Assembly: GCA_023379055.1 (NCBI GenBank)
Contig: JAMCSX010000017.1
Coordinates: 101,868 to 145,058 of the forward strand
Source: Candidatus Marsarchaeota archaeon
GTDB taxonomy: Archaea; Micrarchaeota; Micrarchaeia; Micrarchaeales; CABMGC01
Direction of reading: 5' to 3'
Length of the DNA: 43,191 bases
The notes beneath the pieces were generated by a model. The model searched no databases, had not been told where the DNA came from, and saw only the letters and a list, made by a program, of their open reading frames with translations. Position numbers and translations under genes: made by a program. Shown here piece after piece: positions 15,354 to 23,581 of this stretch (position 1 is the first letter of the stretch; each line of letters begins with the position of its first letter).

Positions 15354-15482
15354 TATGCATCTCCAGTACAATGCCAGGGTAGATTACAGTAATGTCCCAT
15401 ATAATGCAATAATGTGCCAGGCTGCACAAGGCGCATCAGAAATCTTATATATATTCGCAGACAAAAAGACACTATTGATTGC

Positions 15483-16763
15483 ATGGCAAAGGAGAAGGTT
15501 ATACTCGCCTACAGCGGCGGTCTCGACACATCAGTGATACTCAAGTGGCTAGTCAGTAAGGGATATGATGTGGTCTGTTTTGTCGGCAATGTGGGTCAGA
15601 ATGAGGATCTCAATGCAGTGACAAAGAAAGCTATGGCAATAGGAGCGTCCAAGGTTTATGTAGAAGATCTGCGCGAGGAGTTCGTCACGGACTTTATATT
15701 CTCTGCAATGCGATGCAATGCCTTATACGAGGGAAGGTACCTTCTCGGAACGGCGCTTGCGAGGCCGCTTCTTGCAAAGAAGCAGATAGAGATAGCAAGG
15801 AAGGAGAAAGCTGCCTATGTTGCACATGGTGCCACTGGAAAGGGGAACGATCAAGTCAGATTTGAGCTAGGCTACTACGCACTCAAACCGGAGATAAAGG
15901 TAATATCACCATGGAAGGATCCGGAATTTCTTTCAGAGTTCAAAGGCAGAAGCGATCTCATAGCATATTCGGAGAAGTGGGGCATACTCGTAAAGGCAAC
16001 CAAGGCAAAGCCTTACAGCGAAGATGACAATCTCATGCACATCAGCCACGAAGCAGGCATCCTTGAAGACCCTGAACTAAGGCCTCCAGAGCACGTATTC
16101 AGCAGAACAGCATCGCTTGACAAGGCACCAGCAAAGGAGACCATAATAGAAATACACTTCAAGGACGGAAACCCGGTAAAACTAGTAGACAAGTCGTCAA
16201 ATGTCACGCTGACAAAGCCCCTTGACATCTTCATGCATCTCAACAAGCTGGGCACAGAGAATGGGATAGGTAGGGTCGACATGGTAGAAAACAGGTTCAT
16301 AGGAATAAAGTCCAGGGGCATATACGAAACCCCTGGCGCTACAATCCTGTGGGCAGCGCACAGGGATCTCGAGGGTATTGCAATGGACAAGGAGGTCATG
16401 CACATACGCGACATGCTGATGCCGAAGTTCTCCGAGATTGTATACAATGGGTTCTGGTTCTCTCCTGAGATGGACTTCCTGCTCAATGCGTTCAACAAGA
16501 GCCAGGAGGCCATAGACGGGAAGGTTACGCTTTCGCTACTTAAGGGCAACGTTCAGACCATAGGCAGGGAGTCGCCCACAGCCTTGTACAACCAGAAACA
16601 GTCGAGCATGGATGTCGAGGGTGGATTCAATGCATCGGACTCTAAGGGCTTTATAAACGTAAACGCAATAAGACTCAAGGCACACAACATAGCGATGAGG
16701 GGAAGAATTCCCTACGACACTCTGAAAAAGGGCAAGGATAATGACAAAAAAGCTGTGGGATAA
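15483..16763 (+). CDS. argG: Argininosuccinate synthase
   Basis: [17 protein letters not shown] (N-type ATP pyrophosphatase P-loop), [13 protein letters not shown] and [17 protein letters not shown]. The ORF opens at 15414, but the ATG at 15483 matches the family start. Confidence 0.92.
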
Positions 16764-17934
16764 GGGATACGAAGTAAACAAAGAGGTCGAGGATTTCATA
16801 GTCGGAAACGACTATGCCCTTGACATGCAGCTCGTTAAATACGACTGCATAGCTTCCATAGCGCACGCCAGAATGCTAGGCAGGATAGGCATACTGAATA
16901 AGAAAGAGGTAAAGATGCTTGTCAGCGAGCTCAATTCCATAATAGTGCTCTGGGAGAACGGCGATTTCAAAATATCAAAGGAACAAGAGGATATGCACAC
17001 GGCGATAGAGAATCGACTTACAGAAAAGCTCGGCGGTCCAGGTAAGAAGATACATACTGGGAGGTCGCGCAATGATCAGGTACTTACTGCACTAAGGCTA
17101 TATTACAAGGACAGTCTCAAGGAATGTATATCGCTGTCGGAGCAGCTAATTACAAGTATGAAGGCATTTTCCTCAAAGTATGGCGAGATAGCGCTCCCAG
17201 GCTACACCCACACCCGGAAGGCCATGCCCTCCTCGGTCGGACTCTGGACCGGGGCATTCATAGACTCCATGAAGGATAATATCAAGTTGCTCAACGGCGT
17301 CTTTGAGATCGTTGATCAATCTCCGCTCGGCACGGCTGCAGGGTATGGCTCCCCAATAACGCTTGACCGGGAGTTCACCGCCAGGGAGCTGGGCTTTGCA
17401 AGGGTGCAGGAGAATCCGATATACGTGCAGATGAGCAGGGGGAAGTTTGAGGCAAGCATACTCCATGCCATAAGCCAGATAATGCTAGACTTCAATAAGA
17501 TAGCTTCGGATCTGATAGTGTTCAGCATGCCAGAGTTAGGCTACTACGAACTGCCAGTAAACTTCACTACGGGTAGCTCGATGATGCCTAACAAGAAGAA
17601 TCCTGACATACTAGAGCGCATGCGCGCAAACTATCACGTTATGATGGCTTACGAGAGCGAGGTCAAGGGAATATCAGGAAATCTCATGACCGGCTACAAC
17701 GGCGACATACAGCTGACAAAAGAGCCGATGCTCAACGGCTTTTCCCTCGCAAAGAGAAGCATAAGGATTGGGTCGCTTCTCTTCATGAACCTCAGGGTCA
17801 ATAGGAAAAATTGTAAACGGGGCCTCACTGAAGACGTTTATGCAACCCATAGCGAGTACAATCTTGTGCATCAGGGCATGCCATTCCGCGACGCGTACAC
17901 GCAGGTTGGTAGGAAGTATTCTGGCAAGGAATGA
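16741..17934 (+). CDS. argH: Argininosuccinate lyase (short C-terminus form)
   Basis: [19 protein letters not shown] and the fumarate-lyase signature [12 protein letters not shown]. It overlaps argG by 23 nt. At 397 aa it ends soon after the PFRDAY segment. Confidence 0.9.
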
Positions 17935-18055
17935 CAGTTGTCTCAAACAGGACATTAAGTGTTCATTTTGTGCCAAACACACCGTAAGTTTAATATATGA
18001 CAGATTGCCTAATAACAGCTACTACTCGGTGAATCTTGTGCAACAAAGCATCAAT

Positions 18056-18949
18056 ATGGCAGATCATCAGAAGGAGCCATTGATAATTGCCACAATGGCC
18101 ATCATGAGAGAGATACCAAAGTCGTTCTCAAATGGGCTTACGACACAGAACCTAGGAAAGCCAGACTACGACCTCATAAAGGAACAACAGAGATCTGCAA
18201 TCAGTGCGTTTTCGCAGCTTGGGGTAAAAACGCTTCTTCTCCCAGCAGATGAGAAGAATCCGGACAGCCAGTTCCCAAGAGATACAGTTTTCTCCTACAA
18301 TGGAGTTATGTTCAATCTTAATCCAGGATCTCCAAGACGTAACAAGGAGGTTCAGATCAATACATCCGACATAAGATCCGCAGGATTCCAAGTTGAAACG
18401 GTAAAATACGGTGATTCGGCTTTCATAGAGGGAGGGGACATACTTGCATTTGATAGCCAGCATCTTGTGATAGTAGGCATGTCTGGGCGATACCAGGATG
18501 TAAGAACTAACAAGGCTGGAGTGGATGTGCTTGCGAATGTACTGCGCAGCATAGATCCAGATGTCACTGTTATTGCCGTACCACACAAAGGGCAGAACGG
18601 GCAGCCATACGGAGTCCTGCATCTAGAGACAGGCATGACCCCGCTAACATGGCAACAGGCACTGTGCGATCCACAATGCCATGTTGAATGGGAGAGGGCT
18701 TATTATCCACTCCAAAACAGCGAAAGACTAATACTACCCCCATGGCATGTAAACACATTGACAAGAGATGCAGGATATGCTGCACATGTGCTCCCAATAA
18801 ATGGCGGAGTGATGATAGCAAAGGGCTATCCCACAGTGAAACAGCTGGCAGATGCAAGCTACTCGACGGTCATAGAAGTGGACATGAGCGAAGCCAGAAA
18901 GATGGACGGCAGCATGAGATGCTGGACCATACTTCACAATGAGAAATGA
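18056..18949 (+). CDS. Dimethylarginine dimethylaminohydrolase (DDAH)-like amidinotransferase-fold enzyme
   Basis: LGKPDY, PDSQFPRDT, GVLHLETG and the C-terminal EVDMSEARKMDGSMRCWTI (catalytic Cys) parallel bacterial DDAH (LGKPDY...LHLKTG...EVDTSEYRKIDGGVSCMSL). The ORF opens at 17840 inside argH. The start is taken at MADHQKEP. Confidence 0.8.
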   Translation: MADHQKEPLIIATMAIMREIPKSFSNGLTTQNLGKPDYDLIKEQQRSAISAFSQLGVKTLLLPADEKNPDSQFPRDTVFSYNGVMFNLNPGSPRRNKEVQINTSDIRSAGFQVETVKYGDSAFIEGGDILAFDSQHLVIVGMSGRYQDVRTNKAGVDVLANVLRSIDPDVTVIAVPHKGQNGQPYGVLHLETGMTPLTWQQALCDPQCHVEWERAYYPLQNSERLILPPWHVNTLTRDAGYAAHVLPINGGVMIAKGYPTVKQLADASYSTVIEVDMSEARKMDGSMRCWTILHNEK

Positions 18950-18952
18950 TAA

Positions 18953-19063
18953 ACGGGACTTACAAAGGAGGTATATGCAACGCAGAGGGCATATGATCTT
19001 GTAATGGAAGGCACGTCTTTCAGGGATGCATGCAAGGAGATCTCCAGGAGATATGTGCAGTGA
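18953..19063 (+). pseudogene. Relic second copy of the argH 3' end (37 codons)
   Basis: It reads TGLTKEVYATQRAYDLVMEGTSFRDACKEISRRYVQ*. The functional argH end (17821-17934) reads [37 protein letters not shown]. The frame is closed immediately upstream by TGA TAA (18947-18952). Confidence 0.7.
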
Positions 19064-19183
19064 ATAGCCCAGACGGAACAGATTATGCGTATTTTGCAGC
19101 AAATATCACACAAGGTTTGGACCCATGCATGCAAGTGCAGCCCTCTTCTCCCGGTCAACTACTGTATTTTGCTGCGCAGGCAT

Positions 19184-20224
19184 TCAGCAGAGCGTGGAGT
19201 TTGCATAGCATATTGCCTGTTGCGCGGTCTCGGGAATGGAAAGATACTGGCAATCCGTTACCACTGAAGATGAGGATGTGATATTGTAGTATTTTGCAAC
19301 AACTACCTGGTTGTTTATCACCTCCTGCGACGATGAGATGCACGATGCCAGAGAAGGCATATTGAATCCTGACTGCTCCGCGATGCCTTTTATTATATAA
19401 GCTGGCATGTACGTGCCAGAGTATGAGGCATTTACGGAGTGTATGAATCCTGAGAAATTCTTCTGGTTTTCGCCGCACAGTAGGTACTTTTCAAGTGCTA
19501 GCGTATTGTTTAGACCGTAGGTATTTGCCACTGCAGACGAGTACTGCGTGAACAGCGGCTTTATTGTTATATTGATCCTGCCGCCAAACCTGTTTTGGAG
19601 GTTTTCAGCGGTGACTAATGACGGAATGCCCCCTGGCGCATAAGGATCAACAAACCAATATACCTGTAATGGCTTGCCGAAGCTGCAGCTTGTCTGATGT
19701 GCTATTTTTATCACACCCGGTGATATCACATAGTCCTGTCCAACAGACGGAGGAGTTATGCCCTGCGAGAATACGCCCGCAAGGCTCAGATTTGAATCCC
19801 TTACCATGAATGAATATAGATATGACTTAGATTTGTTTGCAGGCAATGCGTACGGGAATGTAACATACCACTCCTTAAGCGATGGAACATAGGATATGTT
19901 CATATCCGACACGTTAGATATGAAAGGGAGCAGGGATATCGAACTGTTGAGGTCGGAAAATCCTGCAAGCACCCTCTCCGCATATAGCCTTACCTGGCTG
20001 GCATTATGTATTGTATTTGTGATAGCAGGCGTCATTGCAGCAGTGCCATTTGTAGTGGCATTAATCACTGTGATTTTGGTGTTATATGACATCACTACAA
20101 GCAGAAGTATGAGTATCACTACAAGTATCATCAGTGCAATGTGGATGTTGTCCAGCCCACCGAACCTTGATACAGGTTTTACAAGTATGCTGGGTTCACT
20201 TATGTTCTTGCTGAGCCTTGTCAT
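19184..20224 (-). CDS. Membrane-anchored extracellular glycoprotein with a degenerate DsbA/thioredoxin-like domain
   Basis: It has one N-terminal TM helix (IALMILVVILILLLVVM) and about 15 N-x-S/T sequons. FVDPYAPGG sits where DsbA-like proteins have F-x-D-P-x-C-P-x-C. The fold assignment is by eye only. Confidence 0.45.
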   Translation of the reverse strand: MTRLSKNISEPSILVKPVSRFGGLDNIHIALMILVVILILLLVVMSYNTKITVINATTNGTAAMTPAITNTIHNASQVRLYAERVLAGFSDLNSSISLLPFISNVSDMNISYVPSLKEWYVTFPYALPANKSKSYLYSFMVRDSNLSLAGVFSQGITPPSVGQDYVISPGVIKIAHQTSCSFGKPLQVYWFVDPYAPGGIPSLVTAENLQNRFGGRINITIKPLFTQYSSAVANTYGLNNTLALEKYLLCGENQKNFSGFIHSVNASYSGTYMPAYIIKGIAEQSGFNMPSLASCISSSQEVINNQVVVAKYYNITSSSSVVTDCQYLSIPETAQQAICYANSTLC

Positions 20225-20377
20225 TTATGCACCTGTACAGCAATCATGCAGCAAAAAGATATAAAAATAGACCTATCGCTTTTCCTTTAGGACACTACTA
20301 TATTGATTTCTCCGGCCTAGCTCCGACCTAGCGGCAAGAGCCGCAAGGCCAGAATAATATTTTCGGTTAATCATTTA

Positions 20378-20578
20378 TCACCATTCATCTTTTAATACTT
20401 TCAATTCGTATAATGTATTCTGCAGAGAAGAAACATCAATAATATTTCCAGGCAGAAGCCTGAAAAATAACGGCAGATGTTCGTCCCTATCTACAGCAAG
20501 AAGAAATCTTACTTGCTTGTCAATCTCTTCTCCGCCCCCTGCTCCTCTAGCAGTCATAGCTTTTTTGGCATGGACCAT
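20378..20578 (-). mobile_element. Internal fragment of a DDE transposase (IS4/IS1634-like), IS remnant
   Basis: The 66-aa ORF ...KQVRFLLAVDRDEHLPLFFRLLPGNIIDVSSLQNTLYELKVL resembles the conserved xQVxLxLLVDxxGxPLxxxxxPGNxxDxxTL block of IS4-superfamily transposases. No intact flanking ORF or inverted repeats were seen. Confidence 0.55.
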
Positions 20579-20673
20579 CTCAAACAGACAACGGACCCAT
20601 TAGCGCCGTCGGTTTCAGGGTTTAGCAAGCCCATTACCTTATCTGCCACATGCCATAGCTCGTTACCTAGCAG

Positions 20674-20748
20674 CGGGCATGACGGGATTTGAACCCGCAA
20701 CTTACGGCTCCGCAAGCCGCTGTGCTGTCCAAGTTACACCACATGCCC
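20674..20748 (-). tRNA. tRNA-Arg (anticodon GCG)
   Basis: The reverse complement folds with acceptor GGGCATG/CATGCCC and anticodon stem GCGGC/GCCGT. The loop is TTGCGGA (U33, GCG, G37), the T arm is GCGGG-TTCAAAT-CCCGT and the discriminator is G. No CCA is encoded. Confidence 0.85.
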
Positions 20749-20772
20749 ACAAAATACTTTATATAGGTTTCT

Positions 20773-20782
20773 CTTTATAAAG
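20773..20782. promoter_or_regulatory. Palindromic TATA-like box CTTTATAAAG shared by divergent tRNA-Arg(GCG) and the Zn-ribbon/aEF-1beta operon
   Basis: Its centre lies about 30 nt from the tRNA 5' end (20748) and about 31 nt from the ATG at 20809. That spacing is typical of archaeal TATA-to-start distances. Confidence 0.45.
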
Positions 20783-20808
20783 ACTAGTAATTATATTAAC
20801 GTGAGCCG

Positions 20809-20976
20809 ATGTCAGAACTTCGTGGCAAAATTTGCTCTTCATGCGGCAGGCTTAGCGGGCAGTATGTGGAATTCAAGTGCCCAAAATGCCTGGAAGAGAT
20901 AATAATACGCTGTTATGGATGCAGGGAGAAGCATACTACATACAGATGCCTAAAATGTGGAACGGAGGGTCCTTGA
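20809..20976 (+). CDS. Zn-ribbon protein (COG2888-like, 55 aa), usual upstream partner of aEF-1beta
   Basis: My translation is MSELRGKICSSCGRLSGQYVEFKCPKCLEEIIIRCYGCREKHTTYRCLKCGTEGP, with four CxxC pairs. Its stop overlaps the next start (TGATG). It falls below the ORF-track cutoff. Confidence 0.7.
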   Translation: MSELRGKICSSCGRLSGQYVEFKCPKCLEEIIIRCYGCREKHTTYRCLKCGTEGP

Positions 20977-21215
20977 TGGGAAAGGTTGCCACCCTTTTTA
21001 AGGTATATGCTGACAATGCAGACACCGTAAGTCAGCTAATAGTGAGCACCCTTAAGCCGACGAGCGTGCAGGTCGAGGAGATAGGATTCGGGATAAAGGT
21101 TATAAAAGTCATGTTTGTACATGAGGATAATGAAGGAAGCACGAAATATGAGGAGGGACTGAGGAAGATAGCCGGAGTAAGGGACGTCGAAGTAGCAGAA
21201 GAAAGCCTCCTCTAA
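20976..21215 (+). CDS. ef1b: Translation elongation factor aEF-1 beta
   Basis: MGKVATLFKVYADNADTV...VEEIGFGIKVIKVMFVHEDNEGSTKYEEGLRKIAGVRDVEVAEESLL has the length (about 79 aa) and pattern typical of archaeal EF-1beta. The ORF 20877 opens in the upstream gene. Confidence 0.8.
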   Translation: MGKVATLFKVYADNADTVSQLIVSTLKPTSVQVEEIGFGIKVIKVMFVHEDNEGSTKYEEGLRKIAGVRDVEVAEESLL

Positions 21216-21274
21216 ATAAATAATATGCTGTTCCTAAGATAGACTGGCAGACAAAGCCGCTTACCTGTGGTTCT

Positions 21275-23581
21275 GTGATAAAGTCAATAGAGCTTAGGAA
21301 CTGGAAAACACACAAAGATACCACGCTTGAGTTTGCAAGTGGCACAAACATACTTATAGGCCAGATGGGGTCTGGAAAAAGCTCGATAATGGATGCAATA
21401 TCCTTTTCATTGTTTGGAGTATTCCCTGCAATACAGCACAGGCGAGTAAACATAAGCAAACTCATACGCAACAAGCCGGGCCAGGAGCGCAGCGCGTATG
21501 TGAGGCTTGTAATGTCGCTTGATGGCAATGAGTACAGAATAACACGCGAACTGAGCCTTGACGGAAAATCTACCGCGACGATAGAGCGGAACGGAGAGTA
21601 CCTACAGTCCCAGCCGCAGAGAGTCAGTGAGGAGATAGCGCGCATACTCAAGGTTGATTATGACATGTTCTCAAGGGTGGTGTACTCAGAACAGAACGGA
21701 CTTGATTATTTCCTTAACTTGCGCTCATCAGACAGAAAGAAGCAGATAGACGGATTGCTCGGCCTTGATCGGTTCGCAATTGCGCAGGACAATTCAACCA
21801 CGCTTGTGAACAGGATACATGACATGATAGCGGACAGCGAGAGGATAATCAGGGAATTTAACATCGATAGAGCCAACTCAGAGCTTGATGCAATAAAGAT
21901 TGAAATAGGTAGGCTAAAGGAAGAAAAGGAGACTGCGGAAGCAGGCATTAAGAAACAGTCTGCAGAGAGATCAAGGCTTGAATCTGAATCGGATAGAATG
22001 AAGGCGCAGAATAACCTGCGCAATGCCTTATCAAAAGAGATAGAGGGGATAGGTGCCAGGATGGGTCTGCTGGAGTCAGAGATAGCGAAGATAGATGCGT
22101 CTAAACTTCCGGACAAGGATATTGCAGCCTCTGAGAAGTCGTTGCTGAAGAAGAGGCTCGAGGCACTTAAACTACAGGACAGGGACAATGATGCTGCAAT
22201 GAGCACTGCAGACTCGGATCGGCACAGGATAGAGTCAGAGATATCCGGCATAAAAAGGGATATAGAGAAGAAACTGCGCAAGGAGAAGGAGCTTGGATCA
22301 AATGGGAGGCATCATGTGGAGAAGGAGCTTGCTGAGCTTGACGATGCCATTGACAAAATGTCCGCAGACCTTGCCCATTCAAAGTCCCTGATGTCTGATA
22401 CCGAGGCCCAACTCAAGGAACTGATGGGACATGTTGGTAAATGCCCGGTATGCGAGCGTGATCTTTCACCAGACCTGAAGGAAAAAATAAGTGCATCAAA
22501 GAAGGACCTGATTGCAGAGCATAAACATAAATCCCAGACTCTTGATAAGGATCTTCTGCAAAAGAAGGTAAGACAGAAAGAGCTTAATGCGCTGCTCGCC
22601 TCGCTTGACAAGGTAGAAGAAGATCTTAAGGAATACGCAGGCATAGAGGGCAAGCTTAGATCCCTTGAATCCGAACATGCAAAGGCCGTGGCTGCTTATG
22701 ACAAGTTCAAGGTAGACAAGAGAACCACATCAAAAGGGCTGGCCGATGCCACAGAGAATATGCAGAAGATAGATTCCATGATAGAGATGATAGAGAGGCG
22801 GGAAAGATATGTCTATGAGAGATCAAAGCTCTCCGAATCACTGCTGGAGAAGTCAGGAGAGCTTGATGCCATACACGTCGATGAAAAGATGCTGGACAAA
22901 GTGCAGTCAGAACTCGTGAGAGCAAATGCAGAGATAAGCAGGCACTGCGCCAATCTTGAGTCCGCTACAAAATACCTGAGGGATAAGGAGATCCAGGCCA
23001 GGCAGAAGGAGGCCGAGATAGGTAGGATAAACTCGCTTAACGAGGGCATTGCAAAAAAGAAGCTTCTTGTGGACAACCTATCGAAGTTCAAGTTGTCTCT
23101 TGCAGAAACGCAATCGATGCTTAGGTCGCAGCTCGTCACATCCATCAACGACATAATGTCGGAGATATGGGGACAGCTATATCCCTATGGGGACTACACG
23201 GGCATAATACTTGATGCGTCCGAAGATGACTACGGGCTAATGCTCAGGTCCCTTACAGATGGCAAGCACGTCTGGGAGGATGTGGAATCTGTGGCAAGCG
23301 GGGGGGAGAGAAGCACGGCGTGCCTGGCACTGAGGATTGCGTTCTCGCTTGTTCTCGTGCCTAATCTGAAATGGCTTATACTTGACGAGCCAACCCATAA
23401 CATAGACAGGGAGGGACTTTACAAGTTCGTGCAGATGTTCAGTGAAACGCTCCCTTCAATAATAGACCAAGTGTTTATCGTAACACATGACGACCTGCTC
23501 AAGCAGGTTGCAAATGCGCGCATATACGTGCTGAGCAGAAACAAGAACGAGAACAAAGGGACAGAGATAGCTGTCGCGTAG
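21275..23581 (+). CDS. rad50: Rad50-type SMC-like ATPase with zinc hook
   Basis: N-terminal Walker A GQMGSGKSS, long Lys/Glu-rich coiled coil and a central hook GKCPVCERDL. The C-terminal signature is SGGERSTA and Walker B is LILDEPTHNID. It has a GTG start. Confidence 0.85.
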   Translation: MIKSIELRNWKTHKDTTLEFASGTNILIGQMGSGKSSIMDAISFSLFGVFPAIQHRRVNISKLIRNKPGQERSAYVRLVMSLDGNEYRITRELSLDGKSTATIERNGEYLQSQPQRVSEEIARILKVDYDMFSRVVYSEQNGLDYFLNLRSSDRKKQIDGLLGLDRFAIAQDNSTTLVNRIHDMIADSERIIREFNIDRANSELDAIKIEIGRLKEEKETAEAGIKKQSAERSRLESESDRMKAQNNLRNALSKEIEGIGARMGLLESEIAKIDASKLPDKDIAASEKSLLKKRLEALKLQDRDNDAAMSTADSDRHRIESEISGIKRDIEKKLRKEKELGSNGRHHVEKELAELDDAIDKMSADLAHSKSLMSDTEAQLKELMGHVGKCPVCERDLSPDLKEKISASKKDLIAEHKHKSQTLDKDLLQKKVRQKELNALLASLDKVEEDLKEYAGIEGKLRSLESEHAKAVAAYDKFKVDKRTTSKGLADATENMQKIDSMIEMIERRERYVYERSKLSESLLEKSGELDAIHVDEKMLDKVQSELVRANAEISRHCANLESATKYLRDKEIQARQKEAEIGRINSLNEGIAKKKLLVDNLSKFKLSLAETQSMLRSQLVTSINDIMSEIWGQLYPYGDYTGIILDASEDDYGLMLRSLTDGKHVWEDVESVASGGERSTACLALRIAFSLVLVPNLKWLILDEPTHNIDREGLYKFVQMFSETLPSIIDQVFIVTHDDLLKQVANARIYVLSRNKNENKGTEIAVA

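Follow-up and report, generated by a model that had tools for sequence, protein, structure and literature searches.

This study focused on the arginine-biosynthesis locus of a Candidatus Marsarchaeota archaeon (Micrarchaeota, DPANN), carried on a 43,191-nt stretch of contig JAMCSX010000017.1 (the window, or W), and on a short orphan reading frame found there behind a gene resembling dimethylarginine dimethylaminohydrolase (the DDAH-like gene, or DDAH). The orphan frame is the 3' end of a second argH, and the sequence that follows it is the decayed spacer that once led from that argH to a DDAH gene. By its phylogeny the intact argH upstream is foreign to the lineage, while the remnant appears to be what is left of the lineage's own allele. 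We suggest that a foreign argH block displaced the native argH but left its terminus behind, the right end of the block being joined illegitimately and the region being altered later by inversion and deletion; taken as a whole, this history is about evenly balanced between being right and wrong. The gene order is tRNA-Arg(CCU), argG, argH, a spacer of 94–121 nt, the DDAH-like gene, the orphan frame, the minus-strand surface-protein gene p346, a filler of about 380 nt, tRNA-Arg(GCG) (minus strand, 20673–20748) and then genes for aS21-like, EF-1beta and Rad50 proteins. In what follows, the suffix A marks the intact argH and the spacer behind it, the suffix B the orphan end (the relic) and the spacer behind that, and p35x stands for p346 and its homologues. 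Relatives' loci and sequences, collected through homologues of argH, DDAH and p346, are labelled L001–L098 and P0076, and metagenome runs X1–X4; the nearest lineage, referred to as the sister, is represented by three ENA assemblies (L081, L082 and L083) with about 90% DNA identity to the window.

The orphan frame (18953–19063) reads TGLTKEVYATQRAYDLVMEGTSFRDACKEISRRYVQ* and stands directly behind the tandem stop TGA TAA (18947–18952), in frame with the DDAH-like gene. When set against the end of the live argH (17821–17919), 17 of 33 residues are identical (BLASTP, single comparison, E 8e-13), and when some 0.9 Mb of collected DNA was searched by tblastn with complete ArgH proteins, the relic was recovered with E 1.7e-5 for the window's own argH and 7e-9 for that of L084. 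The two ends are also alignable as DNA, the relic being 71% identical to the window's own end and 72% identical to that of L084 (blastn). At these significance levels chance similarity is excluded, and the resemblance to argH can be taken as far beyond coincidence. The sequence-only reading had proposed, from a hand alignment, that the frame is an argH 3' end alignable with the resident one in protein and in DNA, and both points were borne out; its coordinates were also correct, but the feature is longer than was thought, since positions 19064–19168 belong to an argH–DDAH spacer. Residues typical of the ArgH family are retained (GLT..VYAT..Y.LV..G..FRDAY; relic pattern GGNCTTACAAAGGANGTNTANGCAACGCAG), and the best protein matches are ArgH ends of other Micrarchaeota: 70% for L084, 67% for L092 and 26–28 of 33 residues for P0076, as against only 17–20 of 33 for the window's own end. 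Identity to the ends of relatives' real ArgH proteins thus reaches 70–79%, which places the frame as a pseudogene fragment of the Lyase_1 family. It has neither a start nor an upstream part: homology to argH begins at about codon 357–361, behind the TGA TAA. No additional argH homology flanks either junction, and none was detected past an 8–9-nt match in the reconstructed pre-inversion junction or in the 143-nt flank of the sister's relic.

Between window and sister the relic copies are 79.6% identical, with no indel, while the argH–DDAH spacer is 79% and the neighbouring genes are 88–91% identical. Because the relic is no better conserved than intergenic sequence, and because its dN/dS of about 0.25 rests on only 21 differences, we read its decay since the two lineages split as near neutral. 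On sequence grounds, then, the relic is an argH pseudogene remnant, probably without function. The sister's copy (L081, 2714–2962, minus strand; L082, 2591–2701) starts with an ATG, L084 argH having a methionine at the same codon; a TATA-like ttaatatata lies about 55 nt upstream of it, and the L082 assembly annotates it as a 36-aa gene. No evidence was found that the sister's relic is more than a pseudogene.

The 105 nt past the relic stop (19064–19168) are collinear with the argH–DDAH spacer of L084 (3362–3404), with 84% identity over 43 nt (E 5e-9), and the motifs ATTATG and TTTTGCAGCAAATATC are common to both; spacer A is 72% identical to the L084 spacer over 64 nt. In an alignment of six sequences the promoter block of the argH–DDAH spacer is conserved across relatives, and in spacer B the TATA position, at about 19113–19126, is degraded. 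Relic and spacer B together therefore resemble L084 more than end A and spacer A do (84% versus 72% for the spacers), and the remnant is best described as an argH end plus an argH-to-DDAH spacer of an L084-like allele type; it may also include the start of a vanished DDAH, a few codons in length. At 19168/19169 it gives way to p346, whose 3' end faces it tail to tail. If the DDAH-like gene had arrived as new cargo, relatives should lack it and have argH followed directly by the sequence at 19064–19183, as the sequence-only reading had suggested; the opposite is the case, that sequence being in L084 the normal spacer between argH and DDAH.

Which of the two argH ends is native was decided by comparing both with argH of relatives. 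In the argH tree the window's gene groups with L001, L094 and L095 (support 100/100), three loci in which argH has neither DDAH nor p35x downstream. Approximately unbiased (AU) tests rejected a grouping of the window with L084 (p 1.4e-4; p 2.7e-11 for alignment columns 101–398) and also a position within the syntenic group (p 5e-4). The first 100 columns already favour the L001 group (94/87), and neither sliding windows nor split trees demonstrated a breakpoint inside argH. The flanks tell a different story: argG groups with L084 (87/89; AU p 0.094 for the alternative with L095), p35x of window and sister groups with L084 (100/100), and L084 is the nearest relative by Rad50, EF-1beta and FtsZ identities, the vertical flanking genes being 74–75% identical between window and L084 at the nucleotide level. 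A search of 5.8 billion proteins yielded no p35x or DDAH homologue nearer than L084, the sister's own copies aside, so the placement with the L001 group does not simply reflect closer kinship. The resident argH is thus discordant with the genes on both sides of it, as expected of a xenologous replacement, and the signal changes from vertical in argG to foreign in argH.

When the terminal region was analysed as DNA, the tree put the resident ends within the L001 clade (90/89) and the relics on a separate branch nearest L084. The relic is short and its support moderate: a constraint uniting relics and resident ends lowers the log-likelihood by 11.3 units (AU p 0.054), and a pairing of relics with L084 is not rejected. 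Taken together, the discordance of argH with argG and p35x and the L084-like character of relic and spacer mark the intact argH as a xenologue and the relic as the lineage's own allele, as far as phylogeny and alignment can tell. The earlier proposal that recombination introduced another argH and stranded the resident terminus is supported in this form, with the difference that the whole live gene is foreign and not only its terminus.

The DDAH-like gene itself has a longer history at the locus. It can be assigned to the DDAH/amidinotransferase superfamily from its Pfam matches (ADI, PF02274, E 4e-8, and DDAH_eukar, PF19420, on homologues) and from the motif MDGS.RCWT.LHNE, with the C-terminal catalytic cysteine, which is kept in all relatives. 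DDAH is followed by p35x on the same strand in ten sampled relative lineages (L084, L085/86, L088/89, L090, L091, L092/93, L097/98, L002, L003 and L011), in most of them with argG–argH immediately upstream, and in L081, L084 and L085 the p35x promoter lies directly behind the DDAH stop. Since ten lineages keep this pair and the relic carries a dead DDAH promoter spacer, a native DDAH must already have been present. DDAH is accordingly an old resident of the locus and a partner of p35x, at most a replaced allele, and the claim that the layout dates it as an acquisition fails. It may well have been co-transferred with the foreign argH, since spacer A belongs to the argH–DDAH family, which also means that the donor had the same synteny, and since this DDAH copy is anomalously divergent. 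Its identity is 94% to the sister and 62–64% to L084; in the DDAH tree the copy shared by window and L081 lies outside the other sampled family members (84/82); and the path from window to L084 is 0.82 for DDAH versus 0.31 for p35x, yet between window and L081 DDAH is the slower of the two (94% versus 90%).

Some other features of DDAH and its relatives may be recorded here. Translation probably starts at the GTG at 18029, about 31 nt past the TATA-like tttaatatat, an ATG at 18056 being less likely; in the sister the GTG is present and the later ATG is missing. The distance from promoter to GTG suggests a leaderless mRNA. The arginine module is patchily lost or decayed in the family with DDAH–p35x: L091 lacks argG–argH between M20 and DDAH, and L088 (152–460 and 953–1396) is effectively without it, retaining an argH fragment (residues about 290–396, 57% identity) some 500 nt from a truncated open reading frame (ORF) of the Phage_integrase family (Pfam E 1.9e-8). 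The gene at the DDAH position in L097/L098 (L097, 7293–8498) is called at 401 aa and stands in the DDAH tree on an extremely long branch (length 10); perhaps it is another ADI-family member, or its frame or start is wrong.

The sister differs from the window in its layout. Its order is argH–DDAH–p351, all on the plus strand, then on the minus strand 18 nt of spacer B and the relic, followed by 143 unrelated nt and tRNA-Arg(GCG). Window positions 18955–20287, a 1.33-kb block of relic, spacer, p346 and promoter, are inverted relative to L081 1574–2819, and homology between window and L081 begins at 18950–18955. The layout of end A, DDAH and end B, read before as the product of one recombination step, is thus specific to the window's lineage; as a one-step product it does not hold, since the sister has the relic on the other strand beyond p351 and the adjacency in the window may be secondary. 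The junction between spacer B and the 3' end of p35x is common to both layouts, and therefore the native block of DDAH, promoter and p35x was inverted relative to the native argH end. At least one inversion, together with deletions, followed the replacement. Twelve nucleotides of a DDAH 3' end also remain on the p346 promoter (20273–20284; reverse complement GAAAAGCGATAG), and the two DDAH tails of the window differ at 4 of 12 positions, which fits the divergence expected of two DDAH alleles. Whether the sister's DDAH 3' end represents the other allele was addressed by site comparison, L081 agreeing with L084 at three adjacent sites, which is not significant. A search through p346 homologues found no third lineage between the window and L084. 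At 19169–19186 p346 is five codons shorter than the sister's p351 (CGA to TGA), and the old last codons are still recognisable behind the stop, at 19169–19183.

The history that we prefer can be set out in four steps. In the first, a block comprising certainly argH, and probably spacer A and DDAH, would have come from another Micrarchaeota lineage with argH–DDAH synteny. Its left crossover would have been homologous, near the argG/argH boundary, and its right end would have been joined illegitimately to the native argH at about codon 357, by way of the DDAH tail AAT GAG AAA and the argH codons N-E-K-C. Such a join would be in frame, the TGA TAA now terminating DDAH just ahead of the relic, and the native leftovers, being redundant, would have decayed neutrally. 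In the second step the native block of DDAH, promoter and p35x would have been inverted, creating the tail-to-tail junction at 19168/19169; in the third the native DDAH body would have been deleted beside a repeat or insertion sequence (IS) remnant, of which 12 nt at the 3' end stayed attached to the p346 promoter; and in the fourth the sister lineage would have re-inverted the segment of relic, spacer, p35x and promoter and undergone further deletion. With a second copy present, all steps but the first are neutral. The proposed join takes its plausibility from the resemblance of the DDAH tail to argH codons N-(K)-E-(N/K)-C-K in a comparison of 12 argH genes, AAT GAG AAA (TG.) being common to the tail and to argH codons 355–358, though the joint may instead be inversion-derived.

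Several observations weigh against this history. In the sister and in every outgroup, DDAH, promoter and p35x share one strand; by simple parsimony, then, the window layout is derived, and relic and DDAH became neighbours secondarily. At the right junction the 8-mer CCTAAAGG equals codons 350–353 of L084 argH (p about 0.006, post hoc), which fits a longer relic cut by a later inversion. The sister's junction beside the relic carries no trace of a reciprocal DDAH tail, so an extra deletion is needed, ending within about 10 nt of the relic boundary. The co-transfer of DDAH is not significant in the AU test (p 0.12), and the species relationships were taken from a few flanking and neighbouring genes only.

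The first two of these points fit the alternative that has to be taken most seriously, and which we regard as possible rather than probable. It accepts the same origin of the native terminus but makes the sister-type layout (argH A, DDAH and p35x on the plus strand, spacer B and relic B on the minus strand) the older one. Two overlapping inversions would have moved the native argH end and its spacer beyond p35x, breaking argH, after which a foreign argH, perhaps with DDAH, would have repaired the locus by homologous recombination. The adjacency in the window would then stem from a later inversion of 1.33 kb, broken on one side at the relic's 5' edge and on the other 12 nt short of the DDAH stop; an inverted GA(A/G)AA(G/A) microhomology may have guided it. 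Such a course accounts for the contiguity of DDAH stop, promoter and p35x, which the sister shares with L084 and L085 in sequence and with all other relatives in gene order, for the 12–15 nt of DDAH tail kept on the window's p346 promoter, for the match of CCTAAAGG to argH codons exactly at the right junction, and for a repeat- or IS-like filler at that junction in the window alone. It passes, however, through states that leave neither argH nor DDAH intact; orthology of the left tail with that of the sister would call for four transitions in 12 nt (p about 0.01–0.02); and an inversion breakpoint must coincide within a few nucleotides with the relic 5' edge in the sister. Nor does it save events, since either history takes about six of them plus one breakpoint coincidence.

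The preferred history, with a native relic and a foreign argH, would be reversed if it were the relic that came from elsewhere: an L084-like argH end and spacer inserted abortively near p35x, with the live argH–DDAH native but fast-evolving, or with the L001 group truly the closest relatives. The small number of genes behind the species tree, and an argG grouping with L095 that the AU test does not reject, leave some room for this, but we consider it improbable. The p35x and argG trees and the Rad50, EF-1beta and FtsZ identities place L084 closest, the protein searches gave no closer p35x or DDAH homologue than L084 apart from the sister's own, and the divergence of the relic from L084 (72–84% nucleotide identity) equals that of the vertical flanks, as expected of a native allele.

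A duplication within the genome, the relic being an old, drifting copy of the resident argH end, finds some appeal in two ends that lie within 1.1 kb of each other in the same orientation and are 52% identical, and is very improbable all the same: L084, P0076 and L092 all resemble relic and spacer more closely than the resident end does, and the resident ends fall in the L001 clade while the relics do not, at the likelihood cost given above for joining them. A recent duplication was rejected, the relic being nearer the L084 type than the resident end. The family residues still kept indicate instead that the relic was cut off from a functional gene of a different allele type shortly before window and L081 split. 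Least of all, an element with its own argH 3' end that integrated site-specifically into argH is barely credible, since only the formal layout (a gene with a new end, cargo and an old end) speaks for it, while no integrase or other recombinase occurs within 17935–20748 (an ORF and Pfam scan between the argH ends and the tRNA gave family signals for the DDAH-like gene and p346 only), the two ends share no exact match longer than 8 nt and hence no att core, the supposed cargo sits at the same place in relatives, and the whole argH is foreign and not just its end; the analogy with 3'-end replacement by integrative elements, drawn in the sequence-only reading, was dropped for these reasons.

The coordinates of the features discussed are collected in Table 1.

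Table 1. Features of the locus from argG to tRNA-Arg(GCG), in window coordinates.
Feature	Position	Strand	Basis
argG (argininosuccinate synthase), vertically inherited flank	15480..16763	+	Pfam Arginosuc_synth and C-terminal domain; sister to L084, 87/89
Intact argH (argH A, 397 aa), xenologous copy by phylogeny	16741..17934	+	Pfam Lyase_1; tree and AU tests
Spacer A with DDAH promoter, TATA-like tttaatatat at 17989-17998	17935..18028	+	Aligns with argH-DDAH spacers of L081, L084, L085 and L097
DDAH-like gene, ends HNEK*	18029 (GTG, probable start) or 18056 (ATG)..18949	+	Pfam ADI, E 4e-8
Left junction, DDAH tail AAT GAG AAA TGA TAA ACG abutting the relic	18938..18955	+	Codon-wise comparison with 12 argH genes
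Relic B, last ~37 codons and stop of the putatively displaced native argH	18953..19063	+	Closest real ends L084 and P0076
Spacer B, decayed native argH-DDAH spacer, possibly with first few codons of the lost native DDAH	19064..19168	+	Collinearity with L084
p346 surface-protein gene (346 aa; ORF 19184-20224)	19169..20224	-	Tree, (W, L081) with L084
p346 promoter region, directly behind the DDAH stop in relatives	20225..20272	-	Conserved with L081, L084 and L085
DDAH 3'-end fragment (reverse complement aag GAA AAG CGA TAG) on the p346 promoter; right end of inverted block	20273..20287	-	14/15 identical to L081 1574-1588
Window-specific filler in place of the sister's unrelated 143 nt	20288..20672	.	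No homology to L081
tRNA-Arg(GCG), right border of the variable region	20673..20748	-	ARAGORN; homology to L081 and L084 resumes here

The arrangement was found in other assemblies as well. A 22.7-kb contig of X1 covers 17700–20350 with zero differences to the window, both junctions are crossed by separate contigs of X2, an NCBI metagenome-assembled genome (MAG) contig is identical to the window across the shared 16807–23224, and a Logan contig is identical over the stretch it shares; an assembly artefact was ruled out by these matches. The best argH match among genome contigs is 77% identical, and the window sequence is also present in mine-tailings metagenomes; a contig scan of metagenomes with DDAH gave one short contig only.

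The region to the right of p35x is variable in other respects as well. Within the filler, positions 20321–20403 form a multi-copy repeat, with two to three times the local depth and many different left and right flanks in contigs of X1–X4; it contains a GC-rich, hairpin-like stretch (ggcc...cggcaagagccg...ggcc) and overlaps the start of a 66-aa ORF (20378–20578, minus strand) for which no Pfam match was found. The interval from p35x to the aS21/EF-1beta genes (window 20288–20808) varies among L084, L085, L088, L090, L091 and L097, and may hold a gene with a chorismate-mutase domain, an MFS transporter, DUF460 and dihydroorotate dehydrogenase genes, or nothing. The tRNA-Arg(GCG) gene borders this interval in the window, L081 and L084.

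Gene replacement is usually inferred only from discordant trees, and here the displaced end, its spacer with the promoter now dead, and 12 nt left over from the native neighbour can still be read. For Micrarchaeota, where argG–argH is patchy, the exchange and clean-up of an arginine-biosynthesis module can thus be followed step by step, which is rare. If one-sided integration is the correct explanation, it would show how reduced symbionts swap argH–DDAH between lineages, with the redundant native copy being dismantled by inversion and deletion. The annotation is also corrected, the DDAH-like gene being a long-standing partner of p35x and not a recent passenger, and the 36-codon frame a pseudogene remnant.

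Among known systems, the prophage e14 and phage 21 integrate in icd of E. coli and replace the 3' end of their target gene. The order at the present locus is alike (a gene with a substitute end, an insert, and an orphan original end), but integrase and identical att core are both absent, the insert measures no more than 1 kb, and argH is foreign over its whole length. Inversions by microhomology or staggered breaks offer a further parallel: a 1.33-kb segment lies in opposite orientation in two lineages of about 90% identity, and a DDAH tail of 12–15 nt is inverted at both ends. A programmed invertible switch was considered and rejected, as a recombinase is lacking, only 10 of 15 positions agree between the inverted repeats, and the contigs of the four runs X1–X4 show a single orientation, although contigs can miss rare forms of the alternative one.

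For the integration itself, a comparable process is homology-facilitated illegitimate recombination (HFIR), which has been documented with 3–10 bp of microhomology in the bacteria Acinetobacter baylyi, Streptococcus pneumoniae and Pseudomonas stutzeri, according to the passage of PMC6382021 that cites de Vries & Wackernagel 2002. The locus would be alike in having one homologous anchor (the argG/argH 5' region), another end at no more than 9 nt of similarity (AATGAGAAA-like), and foreign DNA beside the anchor. HFIR is experimental and comes from naturally transformable bacteria, whereas here it is read from a footprint in an uncultured DPANN archaeon, with an imprecise joint blurred by inversions. 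To our knowledge, it has not been demonstrated in archaea. The locus may preserve, at nucleotide resolution, a natural trace of foreign DNA that entered a DPANN archaeon by one-sided integration, anchored by homology and joined by microhomology, an interpretation that we hold tentatively, at a little under an even chance; it is possible that this is the first readable HFIR-like footprint in that group. Xenologous gene displacement is the wider class to which the locus conforms, in that a biosynthetic gene has been replaced in situ by the homologue of another lineage while the flanks, argG and p35x, stay vertical. Such displacement is normally traceless, but this one has spared the native 3' end together with its spacer and 12 nt of a native neighbour, which points to an insertion with one non-homologous end and not to a clean double crossover. 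The locus is accordingly a case of xenologous displacement with an unusually complete footprint, overlaid by ordinary inversions and deletions, and the process is one of a known kind.

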